Assembly: GCA_002397315.1 (NCBI GenBank) | Contig: DHAE01000015.1 | Coordinates: forward strand, 22,869 to 86,868 | Source of the DNA: Comamonadaceae bacterium UBA4962 | GTDB taxonomy: Bacteria > Pseudomonadota > Gammaproteobacteria > Burkholderiales > Burkholderiaceae_C | DNA: 64,000 nucleotides | Direction: 5' to 3' | Shown here: one piece after another, positions 24,115 through 61,107 of the stretch | Layout: each line of letters opens with the position of its first letter | Position numbering within the stretch: position 1 is the first letter of the stretch | Notes under the pieces: generated by a model | What the model saw: the letters and a program-made list of their open reading frames with translations, nothing else | What the model was told of the DNA's origin: nothing | Databases searched by the model: none | Program-made: the position numbers and the translations under genes

Positions 24115-24453
24115 TCAATCAGCGATGACGCGCAGTGCAGCCCCCACCCGGTGGGCGTGGTTGCACATCCTTCCCAGATCGCGCAGGAAGTCGCCCAGCG
24201 GAGTGAACGGCAGGCGGCGCATCACGCGGTCGCATTCGGTGCTCCAGCGCAGCAGCTCGGGGCCTTCCACCTGCATTTCGGCAGGTTCCCCGTGGTAGTG
24301 CCGCCAGAACGCGGACAGGTGGCCCTCTTCGGACGCCGCGCCCATGACATGCTGGTAATACGATTCCCACAGGGATTGCGGCTGCCACAATGCGCCCGCC
24401 GTGACGCGACGGCCGGCCCGGTCGGCTTCGGATGCGAGGGTGACGCACCTCAT
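24115..24453 (-). CDS. Hypothetical 112-aa protein, last gene of the YcaO cluster
   Basis: The ATG at 24453 (MRCVTLASEAD...) is preceded by the SD GGGAGG with a 6-nt spacer. I recognise no family. An in-frame GTG at 24483 is an alternative start. Confidence 0.45.
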   Translation of the reverse strand: MRCVTLASEADRAGRRVTAGALWQPQSLWESYYQHVMGAASEEGHLSAFWRHYHGEPAEMQVEGPELLRWSTECDRVMRRLPFTPLGDFLRDLGRMCNHAHRVGAALRVIAD

Positions 24454-24637
24454 GCCCGGCCTCCCGCCGCGTAGGAGCGGCACACCGCGCCCGTCCGCTC
24501 CCGGGCGATGCGGGCGCTTGCGGTGGCAGCGGCCTCCGGCAAGGTGGCGCCGACAGTTGCCGGGGTGGAAGATTGCTGCATGGCCGGGGCTCTATCGATG
24601 GGTTCAGGTGGCGTCCGCTGTCTGCGGCGATACCCGT

Positions 24638-24666
24638 AATCTAAAGAAGCCCCGTGCAAAGGCCAA
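24638..24666 (-). promoter_or_regulatory. Candidate sigma70-type promoter downstream of the FHA gene
   Basis: The minus strand reads TTGGCC - 17 nt - TAGATT, in the only AT-richer stretch of the 223-nt gap before the 112-aa gene. Confidence 0.25.
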
Positions 24667-24676
24667 TTACATCGAA

Positions 24677-25630
24677 TTACAACCCGGGCGCCTTCCAGTC
24701 GCCTTCCGGGCGGCCGCACTTGCGGATGTGGAAGGAGTAATCGCCGAAACGCACCTCGCCCCGCCGGCGCTCCACCACCGCCAGCGCGGAGCCCAGCCCG
24801 TTCTGCACCTGCCGCCGGGCGCGGAACAGCTGGATGTTCAGGTAGGGCACGTCCACCCCCAGCATGCGGGCGAGCGTCTCGATGCCGAGCCAGCCCTGGC
24901 TCGACAGTGGCAGCCCCCGCTGCGCATCCTGCAGGCGCTGCCTCGCCAGCGTCACCAGGGTGTAATGGTGGATGCGCTCGCCCAGGGACAGCGTCTGCGC
25001 GCCGACGTGGACTTCCAGGCAGACGTGTTCCTCGTCCTGGCTGAGGTCGAAATCGAACACCGGGGCCGCGAGGGTCGGCGAGGTGGTCATGCGCGGCAGG
25101 TCCTGGGTGACGCCGAAGTCCTCGCAGAGCACGAACTCCCAGTGCCGGCCGCCCGCCTGCACCACATGGCCGTCGAGCAGCGGCACCACGTGGTCCATGC
25201 GGTCCCACCACCAGCGCCCCTCCGACTGGAACACGTTCGACTCGGCCGCAGACGGATCGGGCAGCAGGTTTTCCTGCATGTCGAGCACGCGGAGCACCTT
25301 GTCGCCCTCCAGCGGCCAGAGGCCCGTCTTCGGGCAGGAGGTGTCCACCATCTGCCAGACGGCGGTGGACGACGTGCCGAAGCGGATTTCCGCGCCCATG
25401 GCGAGCGGGTGCCAGTGCCCGGGCGGCAGGCGACGCCCGTCCATCAGGGTGCCGTTGCGGCTCTGGTCGCTGATCTCCCACTGAGTGCCGGACCAGCGCA
25501 CCAGCGCATGCAGTTTGGAGACGTCGGATTCCTGCAGTACGGTGCGGCACGAATCGGGATGCCGGCCGAAGGTATGCAGGGGGCGGAGCACGATGCTCCG
25601 GCCGCTCGGAAGGTTGTGCAAGATCGCCAT
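24677..25630 (-). CDS. FHA-domain protein with a C-terminal OmpR/PhoB-like winged-helix region
   Basis: The N-terminus has TFGRHPDSCRTVLQESDVSKLHALVRW...ISDQSRNGTLMDGRRL (FHA G-R, S-x-x-H, N-G-T). The C-terminus has LNIQLFRARRQVQ...AVVERRRGEVRFG, which resembles trans_reg_C. Confidence 0.8.
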   Translation of the reverse strand: MAILHNLPSGRSIVLRPLHTFGRHPDSCRTVLQESDVSKLHALVRWSGTQWEISDQSRNGTLMDGRRLPPGHWHPLAMGAEIRFGTSSTAVWQMVDTSCPKTGLWPLEGDKVLRVLDMQENLLPDPSAAESNVFQSEGRWWWDRMDHVVPLLDGHVVQAGGRHWEFVLCEDFGVTQDLPRMTTSPTLAAPVFDFDLSQDEEHVCLEVHVGAQTLSLGERIHHYTLVTLARQRLQDAQRGLPLSSQGWLGIETLARMLGVDVPYLNIQLFRARRQVQNGLGSALAVVERRRGEVRFGDYSFHIRKCGRPEGDWKAPGL

Positions 25631-25654
25631 CGTGCTCGTCGGAACGCTTTCAAA

Positions 25655-27880
25655 TCAGACGTGCAGGGGCCATGGATTCAGGTGATCCTCGTGCCGCGGA
25701 ACATCGCGCCAGCCCATCTGGACAGGCACTCGGTAGAGCCGCGGGTTCGCAAGCTCCGGCCAGATGTGGCAGGCACCGGGCAACACGGTCCTGATGGTAT
25801 GCAGCGGAATGTCGGGACGCGTGTAGTCATGCACCACCACTTCCATGCCGCAACCCCGGGCGGCCGCCACGCAGTGCGCGATGTCCGCCCGTAGGCCGCC
25901 GCCCTCACGGGCGAGTGCAAGGTCGCGCATGCCGCGCCGGGCCGCTCCGTCATTGCGCGCATTGGGCCACAGAAACGCCGGGGATGCATCGCGCAGGCCA
26001 TTCCAGTGTGACGGCAACGTCTTGCCCACGGCCACGAGCTGCACCAGCTCCGTCAGGGCGCGCTCGCAGGCCATGGCCACGTCGAGGCTGCAGCCGAAGC
26101 CGAGCGCCCAGTCGCCACCGCGGTGCCGCCCAACGGCCGCCACCACGGGGATGCCCAGATCGTGGGTCAGGTCGAGCAGCCAGAACGTCCAGTCGGGCCC
26201 GAGCGTGCGCTGCACCAGCCGGACGTATCCGGCCGGCACGGCCTCTTCCGCAACCGCCGGCATCGGCAGTTCGTTGTACCACCAGATCGCCGTCGCATCC
26301 CGTTCGACCACTTCCAGCAGGCCTTGCAGGATCGCCTCTTCGGGGCAGTTGCCGGCGGCGCAGCCGTTGGAGTTCCAGGCGCCGTGGCGGGCCCATCGGT
26401 CCGGCGCACCCAGATAGCACTGGGCATGCGGAAGAAAGCACGGCGCTTCGCGCGTCAATGACCAGGCCGGCGTCCAGGCCAGCGGCTCCTCCAGGGCATG
26501 GGGCACGAAACGGCGCACGCGGTCGTCTTGCGGCCCCGTCCCGGCGGCAGCTCGCGCACGCTGTCGGTCGCTGATGAACACCAGCGCCTGCGGGCCGAAA
26601 GCCGGCGCGGGCAGCTCGTCGCGGAGGGCCACCGTGCAGGGCTCGTCGCCCTGCCAGCCCGCGGCGTAGCGCTCCACGGCCTCGCACAACGCACTGGCCT
26701 GCGCCTGTGCGGGCGTCATGCCCTTGCCCAGGCACCAGCGGGCCGCGGCCGGCATGCCGTCCGCTCCGTCCGCGGCATGGAAGGCGCTGCGGAAGACGGT
26801 GACGGTTCCGGCCTGCGGCAGGGGCAGCAGCGTGCACTCCGTGACCACGCCCGCCACGCCGTCGACGCACGGCAGCAGCGCCCGCACGGTGGCGTCGGGC
26901 GGAACGGTGCGCGACCCTCCGCGCGCGCCCGGCAGCGCCTGCACGGGGCCCGGGCGCACCGGGCGGCGCGCCTGGCGGGCCATCCACTCCGGGTCGCCGC
27001 AGTGGGCGCACTGCGGCCGCCGCGGCGCGGCGCTCCAGCGCAGCGCTCCGCCCTGCTCCGCAACGTCCCAGGCTGCGAACCGGCCGGGAACGGCGTCGGC
27101 CAGCAGTTGCCGTGCAGCGGCCTGCGCCCTCTCCTGCCACCCGGTCCACAGCGAAGCATCCCGGGCCAGCGGCACCAGCCCGTGCGAGCCGGGCACCTCC
27201 CGTGCCAGCCAGCTCCGGCCGGGGTGGTTGCGGCGCAGCCGGTGCATGAAGCAGTGCCAGCACGGGCCGGGCCCACCGGAGCGCAGCAGCGGGCCCACCA
27301 GGGCCTGCGCACCTGCCAGGCGTACCGGCAGCCACCAGCGTGCGCGGCCGGAGCGGCAGGCATCGTCCCAGGCAGCTTCGAGCCGCGGATCGAAATAATC
27401 GTCGCAGACCAGCACGTCCGCGCCGCCGGCCTCCGCGATCTCCGTCCAGCGGTCCGGGCCGATTCCCGCGCCTTCTTCGCCGGTCGCCTTCCAGGCAGCG
27501 AGCATTCCAGGCTGGCTGCACCACAGCGAGACGCTTCCGGCCGCGCCGTCGATGCGTACCGGCCCGGTCCGGACGTCCGGCAGGAACCAGCCGGGGTCTT
27601 CCGTACCCGCGGGGAGCACGCACCCCTGCCGTGCCAGCGATTCCAGCGCCAGCAGGAGGCCCGGCAGGTGGCGCGCATCGCCGCCCGCCGCGCACCAGGC
27701 AGCGGGCGAAAGCCCGCCCTCGACCAGCCCGCCGAGAACGGCGGCTTCCGCGAACGGCAGTTGCAGCGCCCCGGCTTCTTCCACGAGCACGACCCCGGGG
27801 GGCAGGGATGCCGCCTGCGGCGCGCGCAGCACGGAACGGAACCGGGGATGCCAGCGGGGTACGGTGTGGAACCAGTCCAT
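25655..27880 (-). CDS. Fused E1-like leader-binding domain / YcaO cyclodehydratase (TOMM C-D fusion type)
   Basis: 741 aa. The N-terminal half has the paired zinc motifs PCWHCFMHRLRRN and QCAHCGDP. The C-terminal half has the YcaO motifs CLGKGMTPAQAQASALCEAVERY and LLEVVERDATAIWWYN. The C-terminus is Pro-rich (-LNPWPLHV). Confidence 0.9.
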   Translation of the reverse strand: MDWFHTVPRWHPRFRSVLRAPQAASLPPGVVLVEEAGALQLPFAEAAVLGGLVEGGLSPAAWCAAGGDARHLPGLLLALESLARQGCVLPAGTEDPGWFLPDVRTGPVRIDGAAGSVSLWCSQPGMLAAWKATGEEGAGIGPDRWTEIAEAGGADVLVCDDYFDPRLEAAWDDACRSGRARWWLPVRLAGAQALVGPLLRSGGPGPCWHCFMHRLRRNHPGRSWLAREVPGSHGLVPLARDASLWTGWQERAQAAARQLLADAVPGRFAAWDVAEQGGALRWSAAPRRPQCAHCGDPEWMARQARRPVRPGPVQALPGARGGSRTVPPDATVRALLPCVDGVAGVVTECTLLPLPQAGTVTVFRSAFHAADGADGMPAAARWCLGKGMTPAQAQASALCEAVERYAAGWQGDEPCTVALRDELPAPAFGPQALVFISDRQRARAAAGTGPQDDRVRRFVPHALEEPLAWTPAWSLTREAPCFLPHAQCYLGAPDRWARHGAWNSNGCAAGNCPEEAILQGLLEVVERDATAIWWYNELPMPAVAEEAVPAGYVRLVQRTLGPDWTFWLLDLTHDLGIPVVAAVGRHRGGDWALGFGCSLDVAMACERALTELVQLVAVGKTLPSHWNGLRDASPAFLWPNARNDGAARRGMRDLALAREGGGLRADIAHCVAAARGCGMEVVVHDYTRPDIPLHTIRTVLPGACHIWPELANPRLYRVPVQMGWRDVPRHEDHLNPWPLHV

Positions 27881-27952
27881 GGGAATCAGGCGTATCGAAA
27901 AAGACCAGAGGCCGGGGCGGCACCGGTGAGGGTCCGCCGCGGTTTCAGCGGC

Positions 27953-28921
27953 TCAGGGCTGCTGCAGATCGAAGCAGGCCACGGCATAGGGTACGTGGCC
28001 GTGGCGTGCACGGAAGTCGCCTTCGAGGCGCTGATGCGCCTCCGAGAAGTGCCCGAACGGCTCCCATTGCCGAAACATGCGGAATCCCGAGTCCAGGGGC
28101 GCGAGTTCCTCGGCACGGCCGAAGCCGGTGGTCACGGGAAGGACCGCCGGCCCGGCCTGCAACGCGGCGATCGGCACGAAATCGCGGTGCAGGTAGTCGA
28201 TCACCACCCGGCAGCCGCAACCTTCCCGGCGCGCGCGTGCGGCCAGCGCACGCAGCATGTCGGGCACGGCGGCCGGCGGGACGTAGGGCGCGACCCCCTC
28301 GACGAGCACGAGGCACCGGTGGCCGGCCCGCCAGGGCACGGCGTCGAGCCACGCGGGATCCTGCAATCCGCAGGCCACCAGGAGGCTGGCCGGCTGGCTG
28401 GCATGCAGGGCTCCGGAGACATCGCCACTACCAGTGCCACTACCACTACCACTGGCGCAACCGCCGCCGTTCGCCGGTGCAGCCAGCGCGTGGTGCCACA
28501 GCAGCCGGCGCAGCGCGATCACGTCGGGCAGGTCCACGTCGATCCATGCCGGCCCGCCGCCATCGCCACCCTTGCACTCGGGCGCAAGGCGGCCCTGGCG
28601 GGTGCACAGCCCGACGCCGATGCTCGCCACGGCGAAGACGTCGTACCGCGCGCAGGCTTCGCGCGCCGCATCGTCGAAGAGGCGGCTGCGCAGCACCACC
28701 GCGCGCACCAGCGACGCGTCCTGGCCCGCTCGGCGCAGGTCCCAGGGGCATTGCGCCAGCAGGCGCTCGGCCCAGGGGTCGGCCCAGCCGGCATCGACCT
28801 GGCGCGCGAGCGGCGATGCGCGCGCGCCCAGGGTCAGGGCCAGGGTGGCAGAACTGCCGCGCAGCGCCTGCCACGCGGTCTCCAGCACTGCGGGCGCCGC
28901 GGGCTCCGGCTTGGGCACCAA
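27953..28921 (-). CDS. Class I SAM-dependent methyltransferase, leucine-carboxyl-methyltransferase (LCM/TcmP) type
   Basis: It has FAVASIGVGLCTR (LCM motif vv.LGaGlDtR) and WIDVDLPDVIALRR (E/D-x-D-x-P-x-V). The start is TTG 28921 or GTG 28918, 9-12 nt after the stop of the preceding gene. Confidence 0.75.
   Translation of the reverse strand: MVPKPEPAAPAVLETAWQALRGSSATLALTLGARASPLARQVDAGWADPWAERLLAQCPWDLRRAGQDASLVRAVVLRSRLFDDAAREACARYDVFAVASIGVGLCTRQGRLAPECKGGDGGGPAWIDVDLPDVIALRRLLWHHALAAPANGGGCASGSGSGTGSGDVSGALHASQPASLLVACGLQDPAWLDAVPWRAGHRCLVLVEGVAPYVPPAAVPDMLRALAARARREGCGCRVVIDYLHRDFVPIAALQAGPAVLPVTTGFGRAEELAPLDSGFRMFRQWEPFGHFSEAHQRLEGDFRARHGHVPYAVACFDLQQP
28424..28453 (-). repeat. Imperfect AGTGGT hexanucleotide tandem repeat encoding SGSGSGTGSG inside the methyltransferase
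   Basis: The minus strand reads AGT GGT AGT GGT AGT GGC ACT GGT AGT GGC. These T-ending codons stand out in a gene otherwise dominated by G/C-ending codons. Confidence 0.8.
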
Positions 28922-28930
28922 GGCTGCGCT

Positions 28931-29725
28931 TCAGCAGGTGAACGGGTAGGCGCTGCCGGTGTTGTTGTAGGAGGTCAGGGAGATCGGCCAGAAATCCTGT
29001 GCCTCGGGCGCGTTCGGGTAGTTCAGCACGATGCGGTTCTTGATCGGCTGGCCGCTGGCGTCGTGCTGGTTCCACGCGCCCTTGGCCGCGTCCCAGGTCA
29101 GTGCGGGATGGGCCTTGAAGCGCAGGGAGAAGTTGAACGGGTTGTTGTAGCCCAGCCACTGGCTCAGCACCGGGGCTGCATCGGCGCAGTCCGGGTTCAG
29201 CAGTTCGTCGCGGAATTCCTTCGACTGCCACGCGAGGGCGATGGCGCGCAGCACCACGCCACCGAAGGCCAGCAGCGAGCCCGGATCGCCGCCGGGAATG
29301 CCCAGGCCCGTGGGCAGCGCGCCACCCACCATGCCGGGCTGCACGGGCTCCGCGCACACGTCGACGGTCGCACCCATGAGCGTGGGGAACAGCTGGTAGT
29401 AGCTGGCCAGCGCCTCGGCGGCGCGGTCGGCGGGGGCTTCGGGGAACACGATCTCGAAGGCGTCGTCGAGGCCGATCCAGCCACCCGTGAGTTCGGGCTT
29501 CCAGAGCGTGCGGTCCTTCGGGTCGCTGCTGCGCTCCAGCGCCACGTCGAGCCAGGGCCACAGGGTCTTCAGGCCGAAATCCTCGGCCAGCAGCTTCTGG
29601 ATGTCCGTCTGCGCGAGCAGGCGGTCCCGGTATTCGGGCTCGTACCAGGATTTGGCGATGGCGCGCAGATAGGCCAGGCGGAATTCCAGCAAGGGGTCGC
29701 CGGGTTGCTGGTGATTGGAACTCAT
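28931..29725 (-). CDS. 264-aa nitrile-hydratase-leader-like (NHLP) tandem-repeat protein; presumed YcaO substrate ('BMA_0021/BMA_0022-type TOMM bacteriocin' as I recall the curated name)
   Basis: The ATG at 29725 is preceded by the strong SD GAGGGAGGA with a 6-nt spacer. It contains two NHLP-like repeats (LRAIAKSWYEPEYRDRLL... and LRAIALAWQSKEFRDELL...). The tail is S/T-rich and ends in ...SLTSYNNTGSAYPFTC-stop. Confidence 0.75.
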   Translation of the reverse strand: MSSNHQQPGDPLLEFRLAYLRAIAKSWYEPEYRDRLLAQTDIQKLLAEDFGLKTLWPWLDVALERSSDPKDRTLWKPELTGGWIGLDDAFEIVFPEAPADRAAEALASYYQLFPTLMGATVDVCAEPVQPGMVGGALPTGLGIPGGDPGSLLAFGGVVLRAIALAWQSKEFRDELLNPDCADAAPVLSQWLGYNNPFNFSLRFKAHPALTWDAAKGAWNQHDASGQPIKNRIVLNYPNAPEAQDFWPISLTSYNNTGSAYPFTC

Positions 29726-29754
29726 TGGTTGTCCTCCCTCTTTCAATCAATCGG

Positions 29755-32700
29755 TCAACACACGAATGCCCCGAGTTCGGGGCGCATACCCAGCAGGGAC
29801 TGCAGCCGCGACGCGTCGTCGGCGGTGCAGGATGCAGGATCCACATGGCGCAGGCGTGACAGTGCCTGCGCTTCCACACGGTGCTTGCCGCCCGCGCGAG
29901 CGACCTCCGCGGCCCGGCGGAAACAGGCCGGCGCGTCGCCCGCGGCGCGCGCGTCCTGCAGCAGGTATTCGGCCTTCTGCAACCACAGTTCGGCAGTGTA
30001 TATGCCCTCCGCGAGTTCGTGCGTGAGCTGCAGGCAGTGCGACACGCGGTCCACCGCATCGGACCAGCGGCCCTGGCGCGCCAGGATCTCGGCGCAGAAG
30101 GCGCGGTAGTAGGTCTGGCAGTATTTGCAGCCGATGCTCCACAGGGCCTCGATGGTGGCGTCGGCGCCCGCCAGTTCTCCGACCACCCAGCCGCGGATCA
30201 CTTCCGCATAGCCCCGGAAGGCCGGCAGGCCATAGCGCCCGGACAGCTCGATCAACTCCTCGACGACCTGGCCGGCGCGCGGAGCATCGTGCCGCCCCAG
30301 GTAGCCGAGCGCCTGGTAGAGCAGCGTGATGCCGATGGAGGGGATGTGCGCCAGCGCGCGCGCACGCGCCACGGCGCGTTCGGCGTCCTCGCGCGCCAGC
30401 ACGTCGTGGCCGGCGCCCCAGCGCACCAGGGCCCGTGCCGCCAGCGCCCAGGCCACGGTGTCGAATCCGAACTGCGCGGCATGGTGCTTGGAGAAGTCGC
30501 CGTGCCGCTCGTCGACGGCGTCCGACAGGTACTGCTCCGCGGCGTCGAACCGGCCTTCGGAATAGTGGGCCAGGCCGATCCAGGTGCAGGCGGCCACCAG
30601 GATGCCGGCGTCGCCGCGCTGGCGCGCCAGTTCCTCCAACTGCAGCGCCAGGCGCATCACCTCCGCGCGGTGGCTCGCCACGTGGTGGTAGGTGAGCATG
30701 AGCCAGATGTGCTGCACGCGCAGGTCCACGGAGATGTCGCGCTCCACCAGGCCTTGCGACAGTTCGATGCGCTGCTCCACCTGCGGATGCGCCCAGCCGT
30801 GCTTGTTCATCAGCGCCTGCATGACGTAGCCGTTGAGCGCCAGCCGCGGCTCCCAGCGGGCGGGCTCGTCCAGCCGGTCGATCCAGTCCTCGACCGTCCG
30901 TGCATAGGTGATGGTTTCGTCGTTCAGCGAACGGTGCTGCGTCATGCGCAGTTGCGCGAGCCCGGCGGGCACGGCGTTCGCGTAGTCGCGGGCCAGCGCA
31001 TAGTGGTGCGCCAGCAGGCCGGGCTCTTCGTCGCGCACGCGGGCGCGGCGCCGCAGGATGACCCCGGCGGCCACGCCGTGCATGTGGGCGCGCTGCGTCG
31101 ACAGCATGCTGTCGTAGGCCGCGTCGCGGATCAGCGCATGGCGGAACAGGTACTGGCCCGCGGCATCGGCGGGCATGAGCAGGCCCACGTCCACGAGCGC
31201 GTTCAGGCCGGCGGGCACGTCCTGCAGGCCGCAGTCCGGCAGCCAGTCGCCATCGAAACGCCGGCCCCAGATGGACGCCCAGCGCAGCACCTCGCGCGCC
31301 GGGCCGAGCTGCATGAAGCGGCTCTCCAGCGAATCACGCAGCGTGATGGGAATGCCCTTCAGATCGGCCTGCTCCTGGAAATCCCACTGGCCGTCGCGCT
31401 CTTCCAGGCAGGTCTCCAGCAATGTGCGGGCCAGCTCCTGGATGAACAGGGCGACGCCGTCCGTGCGCGCGACGACGTGGTCGACAACGGCCTGCGACAC
31501 CTGCCGCGGCGCCAGCACCTGGCGCACCATGGCGGCCGCTTCGGTCGCCCCGAGCCGGCCGAGCTCCAGCGACACGAGCGCGCCCTGCATGCGCAGCGGC
31601 GGCTCCCATTCGGGCCGGGCGGTGAGCAGCAGCATGCAGCGCTCATCGGCCAGCGCCGCCGCCAGCTCGCCGAGCCATTCCAGCGTGGCCGAATCGGCCC
31701 AATGCAGGTCTTCCACGAACAGCAGCACGGGGGACTGGCGGGACTGGTGGCGCAGCCAGCCGAGGGAGGACTCCATCAGCAGCGCCTTCTGCAGCGCCGG
31801 AGCGATGTCCACCACCTGGTGCATGCCCACCTGCAGCGACAGCCACACGCAGAAGATCGGCAGCACGCGGTCCACGTCGCAGCCGGCCTCGCCGAGCATG
31901 CGGGCCAGGCGCTCGACCACCACGGCGTCCGACTCGTCCGGGCCGCCGCACTGCGCGCGCATCAGCGCGAGCATGGGCGCCAGGGCGCTGTTCTCCTGCT
32001 CGGGCCAGCAGGCCGCGCGCAGCACCTGCCCGCCCAGCTCCTGCACGTGCGCCTGGAAGGTCTCGCTCAGGCACGACTTGCCGACACCGGCCTCGCCGCG
32101 CACCAGCACCGGGCCCCCTTCACCGCGCAGGGCCGAGCGCCAGCGGCGACGCAGGAGCAGCAATTCACGCCACCGGCCCACGGCTTCCCGCGGCAGGGCG
32201 GGCACCCCGGCGGACGCACCGTCCTGCGCCATGGCGAAGCACGGCAGTTCCGCCTGCGCGCCGGGCAACCGCACGCCGCCTTGCGGGGTGAAGTGGGCAT
32301 GGTGGCGCAGCCGCTGGCGCGCGGCCTCGCTGACAACCACCTGTCCGTCCGACGCGGCCTGCTCCATGGCCGTCGCGATGCTCAGCGCGCGGCAGGGAAC
32401 GACTGCCCCGCTCTCGATGAGTACCGACCCCGTGTGCAGGCCGATACGCACTTCCCAGCGCACGTCCCCGACCGGCTGGGCCGCGGAGCGCACCAGTTCG
32501 TGCGCGATCTGCACGGCCAGCCGCGCATCCGCCTCGGCATGGGCGGAATAACCGAGTGTGACCAGGAAGTGCGTTCCCAAGGTGCCGCCGAGCGTGCCGC
32601 CGCGTTGCACCGCCACGTCGATCAGGCGGCGCAGCACGTTGCGTTGCGCCATTTCCTGCTGTTCGGCGAGTTCCTCGTCGCCGGCTTCCGGACCGGACGC

Positions 32701-33705
32701 GAAATAGACGCCGCAGTACAGCAGGGTGAGCTGCCGTTTCTCTTCATGGGGCGTGCCGAACGCGACCGTCGGCGCGATGCCGCTCGCACCCGTGCCCGGC
32801 CGGGTGCGCAGCACGCCGACCAGATCGTCCAGGCGAACGGCGGAAGAGCGCTCCCAGAGCTGTCGGGCGGAAGCGGCCCGGTCCTCGCGCCGCTTGCGCA
32901 GGGCGGTGCGCAGCACCTCGGCCAGCGGGTGGCCCTGGATCGCCTGCGGCAGGCTGAATTCCTGCGGCGAGAGCTGGCGCTGGTAGATCTCGGCGGTGGA
33001 TTCCCCCGTCACCACGCGCCCGGTGAGGCATTCCAAGAAGATGAGGCCCCAGGCATACAGGTCGGACTGGGGCGTGGCGACCTCGCCGCGCAGCTGCTCG
33101 GGTGCGCTGTAGGCGGGCGTGCCGACGTACTCGCCTTCGCGCGTGAGCTGGGTGGCATGCGCGTCGCCGAACCCCGGCAGCAGCGTGCTGATGCCGAAAT
33201 CCAGCACCTTGGCATGCGAGGTCAGCCCGGAGGCGCTGATCATGATGTTCTCGGGCTTGAGGTCGCGGTGCGCGATGCCGGCGTCGTGCGCGCAGGCCAC
33301 GGCATCCAGCACCTGCAGCATCAGGCGTCCCGCCTCGCCCGCGGACAGCGCGCCCTGCTGCTGCAGCAGTTGCCGCAGCGTCATCCCCGGCACGAATTCG
33401 AAGACCGCGAAGACGAAGGGGCCGCACACGCCTTCGTCCAGCAATTGCACCACGTGCGGGTGGTGCAGCCGAGCACAGGCCCCGATCTCGCGGCGGAAAC
33501 GCTTGAACAGCCGCTCGTCGTCGTCGATGCGGACGAATTTCAGCACGACCTTCTGGCCGGTCTGCTGCTGCAGCGCGGAAAAGACGATGCCGTAGGAGCC
33601 GGTGCCGATCACTTCCTGCAGCACGTAGCGCTGCACGAGGGTGGCGTCCGCAGCGAAAGCCTGCTGGATCTGGCCGGGATCGGGAGGTCGGAAGCTCATG
33701 CCCAT
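29755..33705 (-). CDS. Ser/Thr protein kinase / degenerate class III cyclase-homology domain / P-loop STAND ATPase with TPR-like C-terminus ('TOMM system kinase/cyclase fusion protein' type)
   Basis: The kinase motifs VVLKFV, HRDLKPENIM, DFGIS and GTPAYSAPEQ are intact. The cyclase-like region (about aa 323-495) lacks both metal-binding Asp residues. Walker A is GEAGVGKS, followed by a long helical repeat tail. The start is ATG 33705 or 33699. Confidence 0.9.
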   Translation of the reverse strand: MGMSFRPPDPGQIQQAFAADATLVQRYVLQEVIGTGSYGIVFSALQQQTGQKVVLKFVRIDDDERLFKRFRREIGACARLHHPHVVQLLDEGVCGPFVFAVFEFVPGMTLRQLLQQQGALSAGEAGRLMLQVLDAVACAHDAGIAHRDLKPENIMISASGLTSHAKVLDFGISTLLPGFGDAHATQLTREGEYVGTPAYSAPEQLRGEVATPQSDLYAWGLIFLECLTGRVVTGESTAEIYQRQLSPQEFSLPQAIQGHPLAEVLRTALRKRREDRAASARQLWERSSAVRLDDLVGVLRTRPGTGASGIAPTVAFGTPHEEKRQLTLLYCGVYFASGPEAGDEELAEQQEMAQRNVLRRLIDVAVQRGGTLGGTLGTHFLVTLGYSAHAEADARLAVQIAHELVRSAAQPVGDVRWEVRIGLHTGSVLIESGAVVPCRALSIATAMEQAASDGQVVVSEAARQRLRHHAHFTPQGGVRLPGAQAELPCFAMAQDGASAGVPALPREAVGRWRELLLLRRRWRSALRGEGGPVLVRGEAGVGKSCLSETFQAHVQELGGQVLRAACWPEQENSALAPMLALMRAQCGGPDESDAVVVERLARMLGEAGCDVDRVLPIFCVWLSLQVGMHQVVDIAPALQKALLMESSLGWLRHQSRQSPVLLFVEDLHWADSATLEWLGELAAALADERCMLLLTARPEWEPPLRMQGALVSLELGRLGATEAAAMVRQVLAPRQVSQAVVDHVVARTDGVALFIQELARTLLETCLEERDGQWDFQEQADLKGIPITLRDSLESRFMQLGPAREVLRWASIWGRRFDGDWLPDCGLQDVPAGLNALVDVGLLMPADAAGQYLFRHALIRDAAYDSMLSTQRAHMHGVAAGVILRRRARVRDEEPGLLAHHYALARDYANAVPAGLAQLRMTQHRSLNDETITYARTVEDWIDRLDEPARWEPRLALNGYVMQALMNKHGWAHPQVEQRIELSQGLVERDISVDLRVQHIWLMLTYHHVASHRAEVMRLALQLEELARQRGDAGILVAACTWIGLAHYSEGRFDAAEQYLSDAVDERHGDFSKHHAAQFGFDTVAWALAARALVRWGAGHDVLAREDAERAVARARALAHIPSIGITLLYQALGYLGRHDAPRAGQVVEELIELSGRYGLPAFRGYAEVIRGWVVGELAGADATIEALWSIGCKYCQTYYRAFCAEILARQGRWSDAVDRVSHCLQLTHELAEGIYTAELWLQKAEYLLQDARAAGDAPACFRRAAEVARAGGKHRVEAQALSRLRHVDPASCTADDASRLQSLLGMRPELGAFVC

Positions 33706-34580: not shown

Positions 34581-34651
34581 GGCAAAAATTATGGCGCATG
34601 CGCGGCATCAAAAATCTCGCTATCAACCCTGTGCTGTAATCCGGTCACGGA

Positions 34652-34736
34652 CGAAACAGGGGTGCCGCGCCTTCCGGGCATGGCTGAGAAAAACCCTCGG
34701 CACCCGATCCAGGTCATGCTGGCGTGGGGAGTTTCG
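34652..34736 (+). promoter_or_regulatory. TPP (THI-box) riboswitch aptamer controlling thiOSGE
   Basis: The P1 stem is CGAAAC/GTTTCG. The conserved elements are GGGGUGCC, GCUGAGA, ACCC, ACCCGAUCCAGGUCAUGCUGGCGUGGGGA. It lies about 85 nt upstream of the thiO ATG. Confidence 0.85.
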
Positions 34737-34822
34737 ACGGTGGACCGCCGCCTGTTCTCTTCCGCTGCCGAGCCGCTGCCCTCCCCGAGTGGCTCCGACG
34801 AGAACGCACGCCACCACGCACC

Positions 34823-43032: not shown

Positions 43033-43152
43033 ACCACCGGCAACGGCAACGCCAGGGCGGCCCCTTTGTCGGCCCCGGCATCGCCCGACCTGGCCCTGCG
43101 CCAGGCCAGTGCTCCGCCCCCCGCGTGCCGGGCCGAGCGGAGCATCCTGAGA

Positions 43153-43260
43153 GCGGCTCACACGACCCAGCGAAGCGGTTCTGGCGAGGCGCCGCATCGT
43201 AGGCAGTACGCGCAGTACGGCAAGATGCGGCAACGACGCCAGAAGGGTCGTGTGAGCCGC
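43153..43260. repeat. 108-nt nested inverted repeat (16 + 6 + 8 bp stems), a possible structured RNA or MITE-like element
   Basis: The outer stem is GCGGCTCACACGACCC ... GGGTCGTGTGAGCCGC (16/16). The middle stem is CTGGCG/CGCCAG and the inner stem is GCCGCATC/GATGCGGC. The 25-nt apical loop contains CAGTACG twice. Confidence 0.6.
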
Positions 43261-43359
43261 GCTAAGACACGCGCGCGACATCGGAGCCCCCATGCACCGC
43301 TGGCACGCCCGTCCCCCGGGCGACAATGCCCCGGCCTCCAGTCACGCAAAAGACAGACC

Positions 43360-44079
43360 ATGGACGACCCCATTCTTACCATCGAAGAACGAGAGGCGAT
43401 CAATACCGGTCGCTGGTTTTCCTCCCTTTCCCCTTCGCTGCGGCACGACATACTCCGATGCGCCTACGTCAAACGCTTCAAGGATGGCGGCCTGATCGCC
43501 GCCCGCGGCGATCCGCCGGAGGAGTGGATCGCCTGCGCGAAGGGCGCGGTGCGCGTGAGCTCCACGTCGATCTCCGGCAAGCAGATCACGCTGACCTACG
43601 TCGAGCCGGGCATCTGGTTCGGCGACGTGGCGATCTTCGACGGCGACCGGCGCACGCACGATGCCTACGCGCACGGGGACACCACCATCCTCTGCGTCGC
43701 CAAGGCGGATTTCCGCAAGATCCTGGCCACGCACGTGGAGTTCTACGAAGCGATGCTGCGCCTGCATGCGCGGCGCATCCGCCAGCTCTACGGCCTGGTG
43801 GAAGACCTCAACACCCTGCCGCTGCGGGCACGGCTGGCCAAGCAGCTGCTGCACCTGGTGCGCAGCTACGGCATTCCGAGCCTGTCGCACGGCGACGAGG
43901 TGCGCATCGGCCTGCAGCTCGCGCAGGAGGAACTGGCCCAGCTGCTCGGCGCCTCGCGCCAGCGGGTGAACCAGGAACTCAAGGCCATGGAACGCGAGGA
44001 CGCCATCCGCATCGAGCCGGGCGGCCTCGTCGTGCGCGACCGTGACGTGCTGATGCGCATCGCCGAAACCGACCACTAG
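43360..44079 (+). CDS. Crp/Fnr-family transcriptional regulator
   Basis: 239 aa with a cNMP-binding beta-roll (GIWFGDVAIFDGDRRTHDAYA) and the C-terminal HTH QEELAQLLGASRQRVNQELKAME. Confidence 0.85.
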   Translation: MDDPILTIEEREAINTGRWFSSLSPSLRHDILRCAYVKRFKDGGLIAARGDPPEEWIACAKGAVRVSSTSISGKQITLTYVEPGIWFGDVAIFDGDRRTHDAYAHGDTTILCVAKADFRKILATHVEFYEAMLRLHARRIRQLYGLVEDLNTLPLRARLAKQLLHLVRSYGIPSLSHGDEVRIGLQLAQEELAQLLGASRQRVNQELKAMEREDAIRIEPGGLVVRDRDVLMRIAETDH

Positions 44080-46561: not shown

Positions 46562-47506
46562 TCAGTGCGGCGGCAGCGTATCCCAGGTCTCGGGCGTCTC
46601 GGAATCGGTGACGCCGAAGCCGATCGTGGGCGTGTCCGTGCGCCCGAACGGCATGCCCAGGGCGATGTGGCCGCTGCCGTGCAGCAGGCAGGTGGAGCGC
46701 CGCAGCGCCACCACCGTCTCGCTGCCGTCGAAGCGCACCCAGCTACCGAAGCTGCTTAGGTCGGTGAATACGATGGACGCGCCCCGCCATTCGATGCGCG
46801 CGTGCAGGCGTGAGACACGCGAATCCGGCAGGCGCACGGCCGAGGTCGAGGCCCGGCCCACGTGCAGCGGCCCGTCCGCAGCGCCGAAGGTGCGGAAGGT
46901 GCCGGCCCAGGCCAGTTCGAGCCAGACGTTCGGCGGCTGCAGCGGGGCCAGTTCGCTGAGGCCGGCGCTCTGCGTCAGCAGCCCGTGCTCGTCGCCCTCG
47001 CGCCAGTCCACCTGGTACACCACGAGCGGCTCGGCGCGGCCGCGCAGCTCCAGCGAGCCGATGCGCACATAGCCCGCGCCACCGATGGGCCCCGCGGATT
47101 CCACCGTGCTCGCATCCGCCAGGATCTCGCGGGCGCCGGCCCGTTCGCAGAGGCGCGACGCGACGTTCACCGCATCGCCGTAGGTGTCGCCATCCACTTC
47201 CACCAGTTCACCATGGGCCATGCCCACGCGCAGGTCCATGGGCAGGGCCGCCTGGCCGGCCTGCTCGTGGTGCCGCCGGGCCATGTCCGCCACGGCGCCG
47301 ACGGCCGCGGCCGGATCGCGGAACACCGCCAGCACGCCGTCACCCAGCATCTTCACGACCCGGCCGCCATGCGACGCGAGCACCGCGCCCATCCATTCGG
47401 TGATGCCGGTCACCGTGGCGGTCGCGCGCGTGTTGCCGTGCGCCTCGAACAGCGCCGTGGTGCCGACGATGTCGGAAAACACGACCGTGCGCCAGGCCGT
47501 CTTCAT
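46562..47506 (-). CDS. Class III adenylate/guanylate cyclase fused to a C-terminal FHA domain
   Basis: 314 aa from ATG 47506. The metal Asp residues are intact (VVFSDIVGTT, KMLGDGVLAVF), and RVGMAHGE and GDAVNVASRL are present. The C-terminal region LHVGRASTSAVRLPDSRVSRLHARIEW...TDLSSFGSWV is FHA. Confidence 0.85.
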   Translation of the reverse strand: MKTAWRTVVFSDIVGTTALFEAHGNTRATATVTGITEWMGAVLASHGGRVVKMLGDGVLAVFRDPAAAVGAVADMARRHHEQAGQAALPMDLRVGMAHGELVEVDGDTYGDAVNVASRLCERAGAREILADASTVESAGPIGGAGYVRIGSLELRGRAEPLVVYQVDWREGDEHGLLTQSAGLSELAPLQPPNVWLELAWAGTFRTFGAADGPLHVGRASTSAVRLPDSRVSRLHARIEWRGASIVFTDLSSFGSWVRFDGSETVVALRRSTCLLHGSGHIALGMPFGRTDTPTIGFGVTDSETPETWDTLPPH

Positions 47507-47766
47507 GGTTTGCAGGCTTTCCCGTCGGCTCCGCCGTGCACGCACCCTGCGTGGCCGCCACCGAAGGCCATGGAATGGCGCGCCGGACGATGGTGCGCTG
47601 GACGGTGGCACGGCCGGACGGGACAGGATGGCGAACGGTTGAGCATGGCTCGGCGTGGAGAGGATCAGGTCGTGTCCCGATTATGGGTCGCCTTCTCCAC
47701 GCGTGCAGCGTCGCACCGCGGTTCGCGTGGAAAGCACTGCCGCACCGCGCGCCGCGGCAGCGTGCC

Positions 47767-58392: not shown

Positions 58393-59799
58393 CTAGGCGT
58401 CACGTGCGAGCCGCAGGCCCGAGAACTGCCACCGCGCGGTGGCCGGGAAGAAGTTGCGGTAGGTGGCGCGCACGTGCCCGGGCGGCGTGGCGCACGAGCC
58501 GCCGCGCAGCACGTACTGGTTCACCATGAACTTGCCGTTGTATTCGCCCACGGCGCCGTCCGCCACCCGGAAGCCCGGATAGGCCGCATAGCTGGACTGC
58601 GTCCACTCCCAGACGTCGCCGAACATCTGCTCCAGCACCGGCGGGCGTGCGGGGTCCGCGGAGCGCGCCGCGCCCGGCGCCGGGCGCGGATGCAGTACGC
58701 CGCTGTCCGCGAAATGGCCGCAACCGTCCGCGGCCATGGCGGCCGCGGCGGCCTCCCATTCGGCCTCGGTGGGCAGCCGGGCACCGGCCCAGCGGGCGTA
58801 GGCATCGGCTTCATAGTAGGACACGTGCACCACGGGAGCGGCAGGGTCCAGCGGGCGCAGACCGGCGAGCGTGAACTCGTGCCAGCCGCCGTCGGTGCCG
58901 CAGCCGCCCGCGACCTCCGTGGGCAGGCACCGCCAGTACAGCGGACGCTCCAGGCCCTGGGCCCGGACCCAGTCCCAGCCCTCGGCCAGCCACAGCGCAG
59001 GATCGCGGTAGCCGCCCGCTTCCACGAAAGCGAGGTACTCGCCTGTGCTCACCGGCCGGGAGGCCAGTGCGTAGGGTTGCAGGTAGACCCGGTGGCGGGG
59101 CGATTCGTTGTCGAACGCGAAGCCCGCGCCGTCCGTCTCTGTGCAGTGGCCTATCTCGGTCACGCCGCCCTCGAAACGGCGCCAGCGCAGCGGCGCAGCC
59201 TCCGTGGCTCCGGGGCCGCGCACGGGCGCCACGGCTCCGACGGCACTCTGCAGGCGGTAGGCCGGCCACAAAGGGTTGCACGACAGCAGATGCTTCACGT
59301 CGGTGACGATCAGCTCCTGGTGCTGCTGCTCGTGCTGCAATCCGAGTTCGACCAGCGCCGCGAGCCCGGCGTGCTCCGCGTCCGGCCCCTCGTCCAGCGC
59401 GGACAGAAGGCGCTGCATGCGCGCATCGACGTCGCGGCGGTATTCCAGCACCTGTTCCATGGATGGGCGTGTAAGGAGGCCGCGCTGCGGCCGGGGATGC
59501 TTGGCGCCCACGCCGTTGTAGTACGAATTGAACAGCACGCGGAACGCGGGGTGGAACGGCGCGAAGTCCGGTTCCCGCGGCTCCAGCAAGAAGGTTTCGA
59601 AGAACCACGTGGTGTGCGCCAAGTGCCACTTCACGGGGCTTGCGTCGGGCATCGACTGGGCGCAGCAGTCCTCGTCGGACAGCGGCACGGCCAGCGCCAG
59701 CGACGCTGCGCGCACGTCGGCGTAGCGCGCCCGGAGCTCAGTGCGGGGCGGCGCCGTGTGCGCGGTCGCACCGCGCACCAGGGAAAGGGAAGAGGTCAT
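58393..59799 (-). CDS. egtB: Ergothioneine biosynthesis sulfoxide synthase EgtB (DinB-like plus FGE-sulfatase domains)
   Basis: 468 aa with SPVKWHLAHTTWFFETF (DinB-type His motif) and the C-terminal GDVWEWT...RGGSCATPPGHVRATYRNFF (FGE fold). Confidence 0.85.
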   Translation of the reverse strand: MTSSLSLVRGATAHTAPPRTELRARYADVRAASLALAVPLSDEDCCAQSMPDASPVKWHLAHTTWFFETFLLEPREPDFAPFHPAFRVLFNSYYNGVGAKHPRPQRGLLTRPSMEQVLEYRRDVDARMQRLLSALDEGPDAEHAGLAALVELGLQHEQQHQELIVTDVKHLLSCNPLWPAYRLQSAVGAVAPVRGPGATEAAPLRWRRFEGGVTEIGHCTETDGAGFAFDNESPRHRVYLQPYALASRPVSTGEYLAFVEAGGYRDPALWLAEGWDWVRAQGLERPLYWRCLPTEVAGGCGTDGGWHEFTLAGLRPLDPAAPVVHVSYYEADAYARWAGARLPTEAEWEAAAAAMAADGCGHFADSGVLHPRPAPGAARSADPARPPVLEQMFGDVWEWTQSSYAAYPGFRVADGAVGEYNGKFMVNQYVLRGGSCATPPGHVRATYRNFFPATARWQFSGLRLARDA

Positions 59800-59856
59800 G
59801 TCGAAAAGTCTCCTGGGGTGCGGTCGATGCCGCGACGCCCGTGCCGCAGCGGGATG

Positions 59857-60795
59857 TCAGGGCCGCGCATGCACCAGCGCGAACCAGCCGCGGTCGTCCG
59901 TCCATGCACGGGCGCGGGAGAATCCGGCGCGCGCCAGCATCGCCTGGAAGGCGGGCAGCGTGTACTTGTAGCTGTTCTCGGTGTGGATGCGCTCGCCGGG
60001 CGCGAAAACCCGCGAGCCGCCCGGCCAGCGCACGTGCGCGCCCTGCGGCGATTCCAGGTGCATCTCGATGCGCGAGAGCCGGCGGTCGAAGAAGGCGCGG
60101 TGCTGCCATTCCTGCGGCGCGAAGTCGCTGCCGATGAGCCGGTTGACGTGGGCGAGCGCATTGCGGTTGAACGCCGCCGTGACGCCCGCGGCGTCGTCGT
60201 ACGCGGCCTCTAGGACCGCCGTGTCCTTCGGCAGATCGAACCCCACGAGGATGCCGCCGTCCCGGTCCACCAGACCGCGCATGCGCGACAGCAGTGCCAG
60301 GGCCTGCGGCGGATCGAAGTTGCCGATCGAGGAGCCCGGGTAGAACACCAGCCGCCGCGCGCGGGGCACGTCCTGCGGCAGCGCCACGGCACGCGTGAGG
60401 TCGCCTGCCACCGCCTGGGCCTGCAGCCAGGGCAGCTCTTCCTGCAGCCGCGCCACGGCGCCACGCAGGAAGTCTTCGGAAATGTCCACGCCCACGAAGC
60501 GCTCCGGGCGCAGCAGCCGGCACAGTGCGCGCACTTTCTCGCAGTTGCCGGCACCCAGCTCGATCACCGTCTGCACCGTTCCCACGGCCTGCGCGATGTC
60601 CGCACCGTGCTGTTCCACCACCGCTTTTTCGGTGCGCGTGGGGTAGTACTCGGGCAGCCGCGTGATTTCCTCGAACAACTGCGAGCCGCGCTCGTCGTAG
60701 AAGTACTTGGGCGAGATGCAGGCCGGGTGCCTGAGCAGGCCCTCGACGATATCGGCATGGTCCGGGGCGGGCTGCTGGAGTGCGTGGGCGTTCAT
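59857..60795 (-). CDS. egtD: L-histidine N(alpha)-methyltransferase
   Basis: 312 aa from ATG 60795 with ISPKYFYDERGSQLFEEITRLPEYYPTRTE, ELGAGNCEK and FYPGSSIGNF, the canonical EgtD motifs. Confidence 0.85.
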   Translation of the reverse strand: MNAHALQQPAPDHADIVEGLLRHPACISPKYFYDERGSQLFEEITRLPEYYPTRTEKAVVEQHGADIAQAVGTVQTVIELGAGNCEKVRALCRLLRPERFVGVDISEDFLRGAVARLQEELPWLQAQAVAGDLTRAVALPQDVPRARRLVFYPGSSIGNFDPPQALALLSRMRGLVDRDGGILVGFDLPKDTAVLEAAYDDAAGVTAAFNRNALAHVNRLIGSDFAPQEWQHRAFFDRRLSRIEMHLESPQGAHVRWPGGSRVFAPGERIHTENSYKYTLPAFQAMLARAGFSRARAWTDDRGWFALVHARP

Positions 60796-61107
60796 CGAAT
60801 GGGTTCCTGAAGGGGGGATGACCAGGACGGCGGGCACACGAGGCCCGCGCCGCATGCATGGCAGCCGGTGCGCATGGGGCACCGAAGCACGGCGGCTGCG
60901 CCCAGCATTGCAGAGAGACCGGAACGGCTTTGTAGGACGCACCCGCTTCCGTGCCGTCGGGCGCCAATGCGCATTGCCCCCCGCCCCCCGACATCAGCGT
61001 GTGTGCCCAGGTGTTACGGCCCTAGAATGCATCGGCGTACAGCCCGGGCATCGCGCCGACTGCGCGGCCGCCGGTGCGGCGGCTCCGATACCCCGACCAC
61101 CTTCCCC

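Follow-up and report, generated by a model that had tools for sequence, protein, structure and literature searches.

We analysed a 64,000-nucleotide stretch of the Comamonadaceae bacterium UBA4962 genome (NCBI GenBank assembly GCA_002397315.1, contig DHAE01000015.1, positions 22,869 to 86,868 of the forward strand; hereafter the window, with coordinates counted from its first letter) and, within it, a six-gene cluster at 24115-33705 that combines a YcaO-type modification enzyme and its presumed substrate with a Ser/Thr kinase and an FHA-domain protein. A preliminary description, made from the sequence alone, had reported six packed, co-directional genes on the minus strand, and we found all six open reading frames (ORFs) at those coordinates and with the sizes and spacing described (intergenic gaps of 29, 9, 72, 24 and 223 nt). 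Codon bias is typical of the genome in all six genes (G+C content at third codon positions, GC3, 0.81-0.92), and the G+C content of the window, ~70%, is unremarkable. The genes of the cluster and the features within and between them are as follows.

29755-33705, minus strand: KIN, 1316 aa, a soluble STAND Ser/Thr kinase
32878-33627, minus strand: kinase domain of KIN (aa 27-276)
32236-32748, minus strand: degenerate cyclase-like domain of KIN (aa ~320-490)
31645-32181, minus strand: AAA_16 P-loop domain of KIN (aa 509-687)
C-terminal ~600 aa of KIN, minus strand: helical repeat region
28931-29725, minus strand: NHLP precursor (presumed substrate), 264 aa, NHLP-Burk type
28934-28963, minus strand: C-terminal tail of the precursor, NTGSAYPFTC (aa 255-264), presumed to be the core; a thiazoline is predicted at Cys264
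27953-28921, minus strand: methyltransferase, 322 aa, TTG or GTG start, LCM/TIGR00027-type, S-adenosylmethionine (SAM)-dependent
25655-27880, minus strand: YcaO protein, 741 aa, a fused RRE / E1-like / YcaO cyclodehydratase
24677-25630, minus strand: FHA protein, 317 aa, with an FHA domain, a beta domain and a probable OmpR/PhoB-like winged helix
24666-24681, minus strand: direct repeat TGTAATTCGATGTAAT (TGTAAT-N4-TGTAAT, 10-bp period), candidate operator of the FHA protein
24638-24643, minus strand: probable −10 hexamer TAGATT, 22 nt downstream of the second repeat copy
24450-24581, minus strand: 43-codon ORF (MQQSS...), the TGA of which overlaps the ATG of U112 (ATGA)
24115-24453, minus strand: U112, 112 aa, cytoplasmic

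Judged by its sequence, the locus is a member of the NHLP-Burk systems and comprises a predicted modification module, which we assign by homology, and a putative dedicated regulatory module, for which domains, synteny and a conserved DNA element are the basis. The statement in the preliminary description that this type of neighbourhood carries curated TOMM kinase/cyclase names proved correct, as KIN matches TIGR03903 ("TOMM system kinase/cyclase fusion protein") from end to end (1726.8 bits, cut-off 705.75), and the precursor matches TIGR03795 ("BMA_0021/BMA_0022 TOMM bacteriocin") in two stretches (191 bits, cut-off 41); homologues of the precursor also have a precomputed match to PF27793. 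Together with matches of the YcaO protein to PF02624 and TIGR03882, of the methyltransferase to PF04072 and of the FHA protein to PF00498, these matches to profile hidden Markov models (HMMs) uphold the family assignments made earlier for the five proteins. For comparison, we scanned one genome per species and obtained 41 loci, from Paracidovorax, Acidovorax, Delftia, Variovorax, Curvibacter, Comamonas, Xylophilus, Aquabacterium, Rivihabitans and Candidatus Entotheonella (individual loci, including metagenomic ones, are cited by L numbers); the Acidovorax and Paracidovorax genomes are the nearest relatives of the window.

NHLP-Burk precursors are tandem pairs or two-unit fusions with Cys or Cys-Cys at or near the C-terminus, and the precursor in the window is such a fusion, with two nitrile-hydratase-alpha-like halves (aa 11-116 and 148-254) that are homologous to each other and with ...PFTC at its end. 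The halves align with each other and with the products of the separate A and B genes of Trinickia. The whole precursor gives weak signals when compared with the alpha chain of nitrile hydratase (Pfam E = 0.0068; Foldseek top match E = 0.14, TM 0.23-0.28), and the Foldseek search with the whole model, being non-significant, was dropped as proof of the relationship and replaced by a profile built from the mutually aligned halves. This half-domain profile matches nitrile hydratase alpha chains in the PDB with E = 2.3 × 10−5 to 5 × 10−4 (31 of the 32 top matches are alpha chains), and also reaches the solved NHLP leader 8TB1 (E = 0.52). The CxxCSC metal-binding active site of the alpha chain is absent from the precursor sequence, there is no Gly-Gly leader-cleavage motif ahead of the tail, and the classic NHLP model TIGR03793 gave no match to the precursor at E ≤ 0.01, where TIGR03795 alone was reported. 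The AlphaFold2 model (pLDDT 82, pTM 0.79) consists of two alpha/beta halves with a disordered linker and a disordered stretch of the last ~10 residues (pLDDT <50 for aa 256-264), so that the modelled anatomy is that of a leader (the folded scaffold) plus a core (the disordered tail). The preliminary description had taken the folded appearance of the substrate as an argument against a peptide made on the ribosome and modified after translation (RiPP); this argument falls, because NHLP leaders are stably folded and are recognised as folded proteins by azoline-forming YcaO enzymes (2025 work; PMC12455567, PMC12537861). The precursor is also like the proteusin/NHLP RiPPs (MprE/MprC, PMC12455567; polytheonamides) in its structured, nitrile-hydratase-like leader, of the kind that a YcaO enzyme reads there through protein-protein contacts, and in a presumed core at a disordered C-terminus. 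It differs from them in the lack of a TIGR03793 match, a Gly-Gly motif and a C39 exporter, in a short core that does not vary, where theirs is long and hypervariable, and in the duplication of the leader unit.

The tail is conserved across the family. An exhaustive profile search yielded 457 representatives of the precursor family at ≤50% identity, and we scored the tail motif in the 149 best. In 141 of these the C-terminus reads A-L-x-x-Y-N-x-T-G-x-x-Y-P-F-[T/S]-C, with 0-6 variable residues after it. Residues Y253, N254, G257, Y260, P261, F262 and C264 are invariant in the alignment of precursor homologues, and C264 is the sole invariant Cys of the protein. TOMM precursors typically have a core rich in Cys, Ser and Thr and are accompanied by a leader protease and an exporter; here the tail has a single invariant Cys, and the window encodes neither a C39 peptidase or PCAT nor any other dedicated exporter or protease. 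The near-invariance of the tail suggests a conserved molecular target (a signal, cofactor or ligand) rather than a bacteriocin in an arms race. We also considered a threonine of the tail as the target of the kinase and the FHA domain. FHA domains need phosphothreonine, and the Thr at position −8 is found in 97 of the 141 representatives, and position −1 is either Thr or Ser; the tail is therefore a poor FHA target, and we disfavour this possibility.

The 741-aa protein matches PF02624 with 257.8 bits and TIGR03882 with 70.3 bits (cut-off 36.9), and in a phmmer search it matched LynD (4v1t) with E = 5 × 10−82 over aa 134-739, as well as TruD and MusD. A profile of its N-terminal part matches TruD, MusD and LynD from residue ~8-23 onwards (E ~ 10−16), i.e., in the RRE region, and the alignment from the phmmer search shows that the ATP/Mg motifs EAVER and EVVERD and the C-terminal NPWPL are kept. 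The protein is thus a YcaO cyclodehydratase with the E1-like/RRE partner typical of TOMM systems and, at the same time, a heterocyclase of the PatD/LynD type. With the cyanobactin heterocyclases LynD, TruD, PatD and MusD (4v1t, 4bs9, 7u58) it shares the RRE / E1-like / YcaO architecture, collinear over ~740 aa, the ATP/Mg motifs and the Pro-rich C-terminus, and these enzymes form azolines without a dehydrogenase. In contrast to the cyanobactin systems, PatA/PatG subtilisin-like proteases and a macrocyclase are absent from the window and from the related loci, and the presumed substrate is a folded 250-aa nitrile-hydratase-like scaffold with one invariant Cys instead of a short leader followed by multi-cassette cores. 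The FMN-dependent SagB-type dehydrogenase of TOMM systems is missing as well: as had been described previously for the cluster and its surroundings, no SagB-type nitroreductase/dehydrogenase, TfuA, C39 peptidase or PCAT exporter is encoded anywhere in the 64-kb window, and a SagB-type dehydrogenase is not conserved in the related loci either.

The methyltransferase matches the LCM family (PF04072, 34.1 bits, cut-off 22.3), and a SAM-binding motif like that of the LCM/TIGR00027 family can be seen by eye; carboxyl methylation by this enzyme is only a family-level guess. The gene is present in 39 of the 41 genome loci and missing from L040, L041, L042, L047, L048 and L050, and on this distribution we regard it as accessory, given its absence from several related clusters. 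Among the genome loci, the precursor ends exactly at the Cys in all 39 that have the methyltransferase, and three without it carry extensions. The rule that this seems to imply, a methyltransferase wherever the Cys is C-terminal, is broken by metagenomic clusters that have a methyltransferase with a precursor ending in ...CG (L044, L046) or ...CA (L043), or no methyltransferase with one ending in ...CA (L047), and we rejected it. A low-complexity Gly/Ser insert in the methyltransferase (aa ~150-170, GGGCASGSGSGTGSGDVSG) was the sole part of the protein matched in a PDB sequence search, where it hit artificial linkers.

Turning to the regulatory module, Pfam models identify in KIN a protein kinase domain (Pkinase, E = 1.3 × 10−44), an AAA_16 domain (E = 2.2 × 10−15) and, weakly, a Guanylate_cyc domain (E = 2.4 × 10−6). 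Across 15 aligned members of the family, the catalytic Lys K55, the HRD and DFG motifs, the activation-loop threonine T188, the APE motif and Walker A/B are invariant, and the cyclase-like region is poorly conserved. Class III nucleotidyl cyclases require two metal-binding Asp residues and a transition-state Asn/Arg pair; compared with the solved cyclases 3mr7 and 2w01, the domain in KIN has lost the second metal Asp (GD to GT) and has Ser/Thr in place of Asn/Arg, and its first metal-binding Asp was judged by eye to be replaced by Gly. What had been called cyclase-like is therefore related to cyclases by a weak profile match, but it is a degenerate pseudo-cyclase in which the catalytic residues are replaced. 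Going by these residues, KIN appears to be an active STAND kinase that carries a dead cyclase-like domain.

The 317-aa protein matches the FHA model PF00498 with 52.7 bits (E = 5.9 × 10−14), and its phosphothreonine-binding residues G22, R23, S38, H41, S57 and G60 are invariant, R58 nearly so. Its AlphaFold2 model (pLDDT 91) has three domains, namely the FHA domain, a second beta domain and a C-terminal domain with the topology beta3-alpha-beta-alpha-alpha-hairpin, which fits the order of elements in OmpR/PhoB effector domains. Alignment of the C-terminal domain with hhalign recovered the recognition helix only (LNIQLFRARRQ vs. VDVHIRRLRK; E = 0.014 for PhoB and 0.026 for OmpR, with PhoB and OmpR sequences entered by hand), and one of 19 relatives of the FHA protein matches Trans_reg_C (E = 0.037), for which the window protein itself has no Pfam match. 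From the model, the protein probably ends in an OmpR/PhoB-like winged helix. Of the label FHA/winged-helix in the preliminary description, the first half is secured by PF00498, whereas the second escapes detection by HMMs and draws on the predicted topology and the weak local profile match. A comparable pairing is known in mycobacteria, where transcription is controlled by PknK, a soluble Hanks kinase with a P-loop/MalT-like repeat region fused to it, and where the Hanks kinase PknH recruits and phosphorylates EmbR, a regulator with an FHA domain and an OmpR-type winged helix, which leads to promoter activation. The pair in the window differs from these in the extra degenerate cyclase-like domain of the kinase, in its tie to a YcaO/precursor module and, with respect to EmbR, in a regulator that starts with the FHA domain, contains an additional beta domain and lacks a BTAD.

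By aligning the 223-nt gap of close relatives, we found an island of identity just past the stop codon of the FHA gene, and this island holds the TGTAAT direct repeat, the first copy of which contains that stop codon. In the window the repeat is upstream of U112 and is the single match even when up to 2 mismatches are allowed; none of 100 shuffles gave a match (0/100). The exact repeat occurs once per locus, at the same position, in 30 loci from five genera. In the metagenomic clusters in which the FHA gene comes first, it is found immediately upstream of the precursor gene and also ahead of genes downstream of the YcaO gene. Altogether, the ~1 Mb of sequence searched contains 40 exact sites, all of which adjoin cluster genes, and there is no site in the three loci that lack KIN and the FHA gene. 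A TAnnnT hexamer lies exactly at +22 from the second repeat copy in 34 of the 40 sites (background, 0.17% per position), and this fixed spacing puts the repeats at about −35 of an activator-type promoter. Tandem winged helices of the OmpR/PhoB type bind direct repeats with a 10-bp period, which makes the FHA protein the obvious candidate binder. The pho box bound by PhoB likewise consists of TGTCAT-like direct repeats at about one helical turn that replace the −35 element of an activator-dependent promoter; the element in the window differs in its unit (TGTAAT), in its period (10 bp vs. 11 bp) and in that it co-occurs with an FHA/winged-helix gene and not with phosphate genes. In Mitsuaria sp. 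WAJ17, a TGTCAT-N4-TGTCAT repeat (L051 9824-9839) lies in the divergent promoter region of an FHA/winged-helix paralogue that is paired with a plain kinase of 476 aa in the absence of precursor and YcaO genes, which suggests a wider family of kinase/FHA/winged-helix switches with related operators.

The order KIN-NHLP-(methyltransferase)-YcaO-FHA, the conservation of which had been left to be checked, is syntenic in ~35 of the 41 loci, and in Paracidovorax and Acidovorax (L001-L007, L039) the insertion site between thiD and the FNR-type reductase gene is fixed as well. In Trinickia and Azohydromonas, the order is FHA-KIN-A-B-YcaO, without a methyltransferase, and low-GC metagenomic contigs have FHA-KIN-NHLP-(methyltransferase)-YcaO, in some cases with the kinase split from the cyclase/AAA part or the E1-like from the YcaO part. 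The link between phospho-signalling and modification genes noticed in the window thus persists through rearranged gene orders and split domains, and the four-gene core of KIN, FHA, precursor and YcaO stays together even where the precursors are only 29-45% identical to that of the window. Two Variovorax species, in contrast, have lost KIN and FHA together and kept NHLP-methyltransferase-YcaO, so that the chemistry would not need the kinase and the FHA protein; relatives of the FHA protein, in turn, are also paired with plain kinases where there is no precursor. Gene content across these loci indicates that the kinase/FHA pair is linked to the precursor and the YcaO gene far more tightly than a casual cluster regulator would be, yet is dispensable for the chemistry. 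In Curvibacter sp. CHRR-16 (L040 5659-14037), the cluster has GC3 values of 0.44-0.57 compared with 0.6-0.78 in its neighbours, which suggests that it was recently acquired by horizontal transfer; it lacks the methyltransferase and has a precursor ending in ...FTCN.

The genes behind the promoter vary from lineage to lineage. In the window, U112 is the only local gene downstream of the repeat; it is a genuine gene (GC3 0.81), homologues with 28-90% identity follow the cluster in 29 of the 41 loci, and it has no Pfam, NCBIfam, PADLOC or PDB match and no relatives beyond Comamonadaceae clusters. In Variovorax, Delftia and Paracidovorax anthurii, the genes in this position are X1, X2 and a U112 homologue. 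X1 (218 aa, beta-rich; L013 14932-15588, L016 14848-15507), which the window lacks, comes first behind the promoter in 19 loci of Variovorax and Comamonas. Intact genes for X2, a Cys-rich lipoprotein, occur in P. anthurii, in Delftia sp. PS-11 and in some Variovorax species, always directly before the U112 homologue; the two could be a secreted protein and its partner. The 43-codon ORF ahead of U112 begins with the same ATGCAGC that opens the intact X2 gene of P. anthurii (L007 15032-15496, 126 aa plus), and elsewhere in Paracidovorax it is short and not conserved as a protein; we interpret it as a relic of a deleted X2 gene. A coupled leader peptide, the other explanation considered for this ORF, was rejected in favour of a decayed X2 start, X2 being intact in P. 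anthurii. With U112 and the lipoprotein-gene relic in the cluster, the absence of an immunity-like gene, as claimed in the preliminary description, cannot be asserted. In Trinickia terrae (L042 7923-9603), a repeat with one mismatch faces a divergent gene for a Cys-rich 126-aa protein, followed by a CapV-like patatin that resembles the cGAMP-activated phospholipase of CBASS (169 bits, below the cut-off of 200). In a low-GC metagenomic cluster, four tandem TGTAAT units with 10-bp spacing (L046 5369-5404) stand just past the YcaO gene, ahead of a gene for a 1246-aa cadherin-like/beta-propeller protein. With the exception of the patatin, X1, X2, the Trinickia 126-aa protein and the other cargo have no family match.

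Taken together, we consider it somewhat probable (about 0.55) that the cluster sets a thiazoline on the disordered tail of the precursor and stands under a STAND-kinase/FHA transcription switch that acts on the conserved repeat. Under this reading, the two halves of the precursor would act as a structured leader or scaffold that presents the disordered ~10-residue tail ...YNNTGSAYPFTC to the LynD-like RRE/E1/YcaO enzyme, which, using ATP, would cyclodehydrate Cys264 with the carbonyl of Thr263 to a thiazoline; the ring would stay an azoline because no dehydrogenase is present. O-methylation by the methyltransferase, possibly of the C-terminal carboxylate as with several enzymes of the LCM family, would be a step that is optional in the family. 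On the regulatory side, the kinase would sense a cue through its P-loop and C-terminal repeat region and autophosphorylate, probably on the invariant T188; the FHA domain of the 317-aa protein would dock on a phosphothreonine of the kinase, and the protein thus activated would bind TGTAAT-N4-TGTAAT through its winged helix, at about −35 of the activator-dependent promoter. In the window this promoter would drive U112 only, downstream of the X2 relic, and in relatives with the FHA gene first it would drive the precursor operon. The precursor and enzyme genes of the window would be transcribed with the kinase gene; the start of KIN and the stop of thiD overlap by ~10 nt (33696-33705), and this operon may be served by read-through from thiD. 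The preliminary description had envisaged a signal-gated protein-modification system. The kinase and FHA genes are indeed linked to the cluster, but the gating most likely acts on transcription and not on the modification chemistry, because the FHA protein has a probable DNA-binding domain and the repeat and promoter are conserved.

Several observations weigh against this reading. The modification, the residue that carries it and the acceptor of the methyl group are predictions, and the YcaO protein scores slightly below the cut-off of TIGR03604 (203 vs. 219). No significant match to the winged helix came up, either in sequence (PDB, Pfam) or in structure, and the top 50 Foldseek matches of the FHA protein are all to FHA domains. 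As the repeat resembles the pho box, another factor of the OmpR family could bind it. In Xylophilus and Aquabacterium the FHA gene is present without a site within 10 kb and without downstream cargo, and Azohydromonas carries a degenerate copy of the repeat only. The precursor operon of the window itself is without a repeat site, so that no gating of the modification by the switch is visible at this locus. Finally, our analysis gave no indication of the cue of the kinase or of the route by which a product would leave the cell.

If the product does leave the cell, the system could be a classical secreted RiPP, i.e., a two-chain TOMM bacteriocin in which the tail or a longer C-terminal piece is cleaved after thiazoline formation, exported by a protease and a pump encoded elsewhere, and active on other cells, with the kinase and the FHA protein as mere pathway-specific regulators. 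The curated family name, the leader-plus-core anatomy of the precursor and the placement of the YcaO enzyme in the clade of cyanobactin heterocyclases, the products of which are secreted peptides, all speak for it; moreover, the invariant Gly at −7 could mark a cleavage site, and biosynthetic clusters commonly contain regulators. We nevertheless regard this as unlikely, given that no protease, exporter or recognisable immunity gene is present in the 64-kb window or conserved in ~50 related loci, that the core, with its one modifiable Cys, is near-invariant in 141 representatives at ≤50% identity, the opposite of what bacteriocin cores show, and that the kinase and FHA genes are kept far more stubbornly than usual cluster regulators.

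The stubborn linkage and the invariant tail could also be read the other way round, with nothing leaving the cell: the intact precursor with its thiazoline tail would be a ligand or co-sensor of the C-terminal repeat domain of the kinase, or a redox- or metal-sensitive reporter for it, and the state or loss of the modification (by hydrolysis, oxidation or metal binding) would control the kinase, the FHA/winged-helix factor and, through the TGTAAT promoters, the lineage-specific outputs. Such a closed loop fits the inseparability of the four genes over deep divergence, the invariance expected of a ligand for a conserved receptor, the absence of export machinery, and a promoter that drives outputs as variable as the U112/lipoprotein pair, X1, the CapV-like phospholipase and the cadherin-like surface protein. 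It is hard to reconcile with the two Variovorax species that keep the precursor, methyltransferase and YcaO without the kinase and FHA genes, with the FHA/winged-helix and kinase pairs that exist without a precursor or YcaO, and with the properties that make the tail a poor FHA target; we therefore hold it to be decidedly unlikely. If true, a heterocycle in a protein backbone would be the basis of a signalling pathway, and YcaO chemistry is not yet known to be used in this way. Least probable, and very improbable in our view, is a conflict or defence system in which an invader is sensed by the STAND kinase, variable effector genes are turned on by it, and the YcaO-modified protein is a toxin, decoy or guard. 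The STAND architecture, the similarity of the kinase domain to defence kinases in PADLOC and the variable cargo behind the operator, including the CBASS-type patatin lipase of Trinickia and the lipoprotein and small-protein pair, point in this direction; however, the PADLOC matches cover only the generic kinase domain of KIN, the five other cluster proteins have zero matches to PADLOC defence models, the patatin is under its family cut-off, and the cluster has a fixed housekeeping position in Paracidovorax and Acidovorax with no signs of mobile elements.

The preliminary description overrated the novelty of the system. Haft, Basu and Mitchell (2010; PMC2887384) defined NHLP-Burk bioinformatically; they described the large Ser/Thr kinase, the Cys at the C-terminus of the precursor and, in Acidovorax and Delftia, its fused form, found the usual transporters to be lacking, and also noted a missing motif 2; the name has been in annotation pipelines since 2010, and public data hold the ~457 diverged representatives. 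Cox et al. (2015; PMC4603692) grouped the NHLP-Burk YcaO with the cyanobactin enzymes. The locus in the window shares with NHLP-Burk (TIGR03795 / PF27793 and TIGR03903) the precursor family, the fused two-repeat form, the adjoining cyclodehydratase, the kinase, the C-terminal Cys and the lack of NHLP-type transporters, and no feature sets it apart from the family. Not mentioned in the 2010 paper are the methyltransferase and U112, the FHA/winged-helix partner, the degeneracy of the cyclase domain, the invariant nature of the tail and the promoter with the TGTAAT repeat, and to our knowledge, as far as the literature was searched, the FHA/winged-helix partner, the repeat and promoter, the pseudo-cyclase, the family-wide tail invariance and the variable cargo are new here. 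In agreement with the preliminary description, full-text literature searches found no experimental study, product or function of an NHLP-Burk system. The analysis provides the system with testable parts, namely a predicted modification site, a kinase with a dead cyclase, a probable phosphothreonine-controlled factor, a candidate site and promoter, and a list of genes that they would drive; confirmation of the circuit would make it a clear example of a YcaO system that has a kinase/FHA switch of the eukaryote-like type dedicated to it.

The flanks of the cluster are occupied by housekeeping genes, as the preliminary description had it, and its observation that integrase, tRNA and transposase genes are absent extends to the whole 64-kb window. 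On the low-coordinate side lie sulfate-assimilation genes (sulfite reductase, cysD, cysN), fdxA and an FNR-type reductase gene; on the opposite side lies thiD, followed on the other strand by a thiamine pyrophosphate (TPP) riboswitch and thiO-thiS-thiG-thiE, and the remaining window is housekeeping. The riboswitch (RF00059, 61.8 bits; 34648-34747, plus strand), upstream of thiO-thiS-thiG-thiE and divergent from thiD, was ruled out as a regulator of the cluster because it is on the opposite strand and serves the thiO-S-G-E genes. At 10-13 kb from the cluster, the window encodes a second FHA signalling protein, a class III cyclase domain fused to an FHA domain (46562-47611, minus strand, 349 aa), and a Crp-like regulator that binds cyclic nucleoside monophosphates (43066-44079, plus strand). 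The product of the region 38147-~40620 (minus strand), in which a first pass showed no ORF with normal codon bias, is a membrane protein of ~820 aa that is rich in Ala and Pro, has a single predicted transmembrane segment and a FimV-like C-terminal region, and lacks a Pfam match. At 58393-60942 (minus strand), adjoining genes with FGE-sulfatase/DinB_2 and Methyltransf_33 domains form the EgtB/EgtD signature of ergothioneine biosynthesis.

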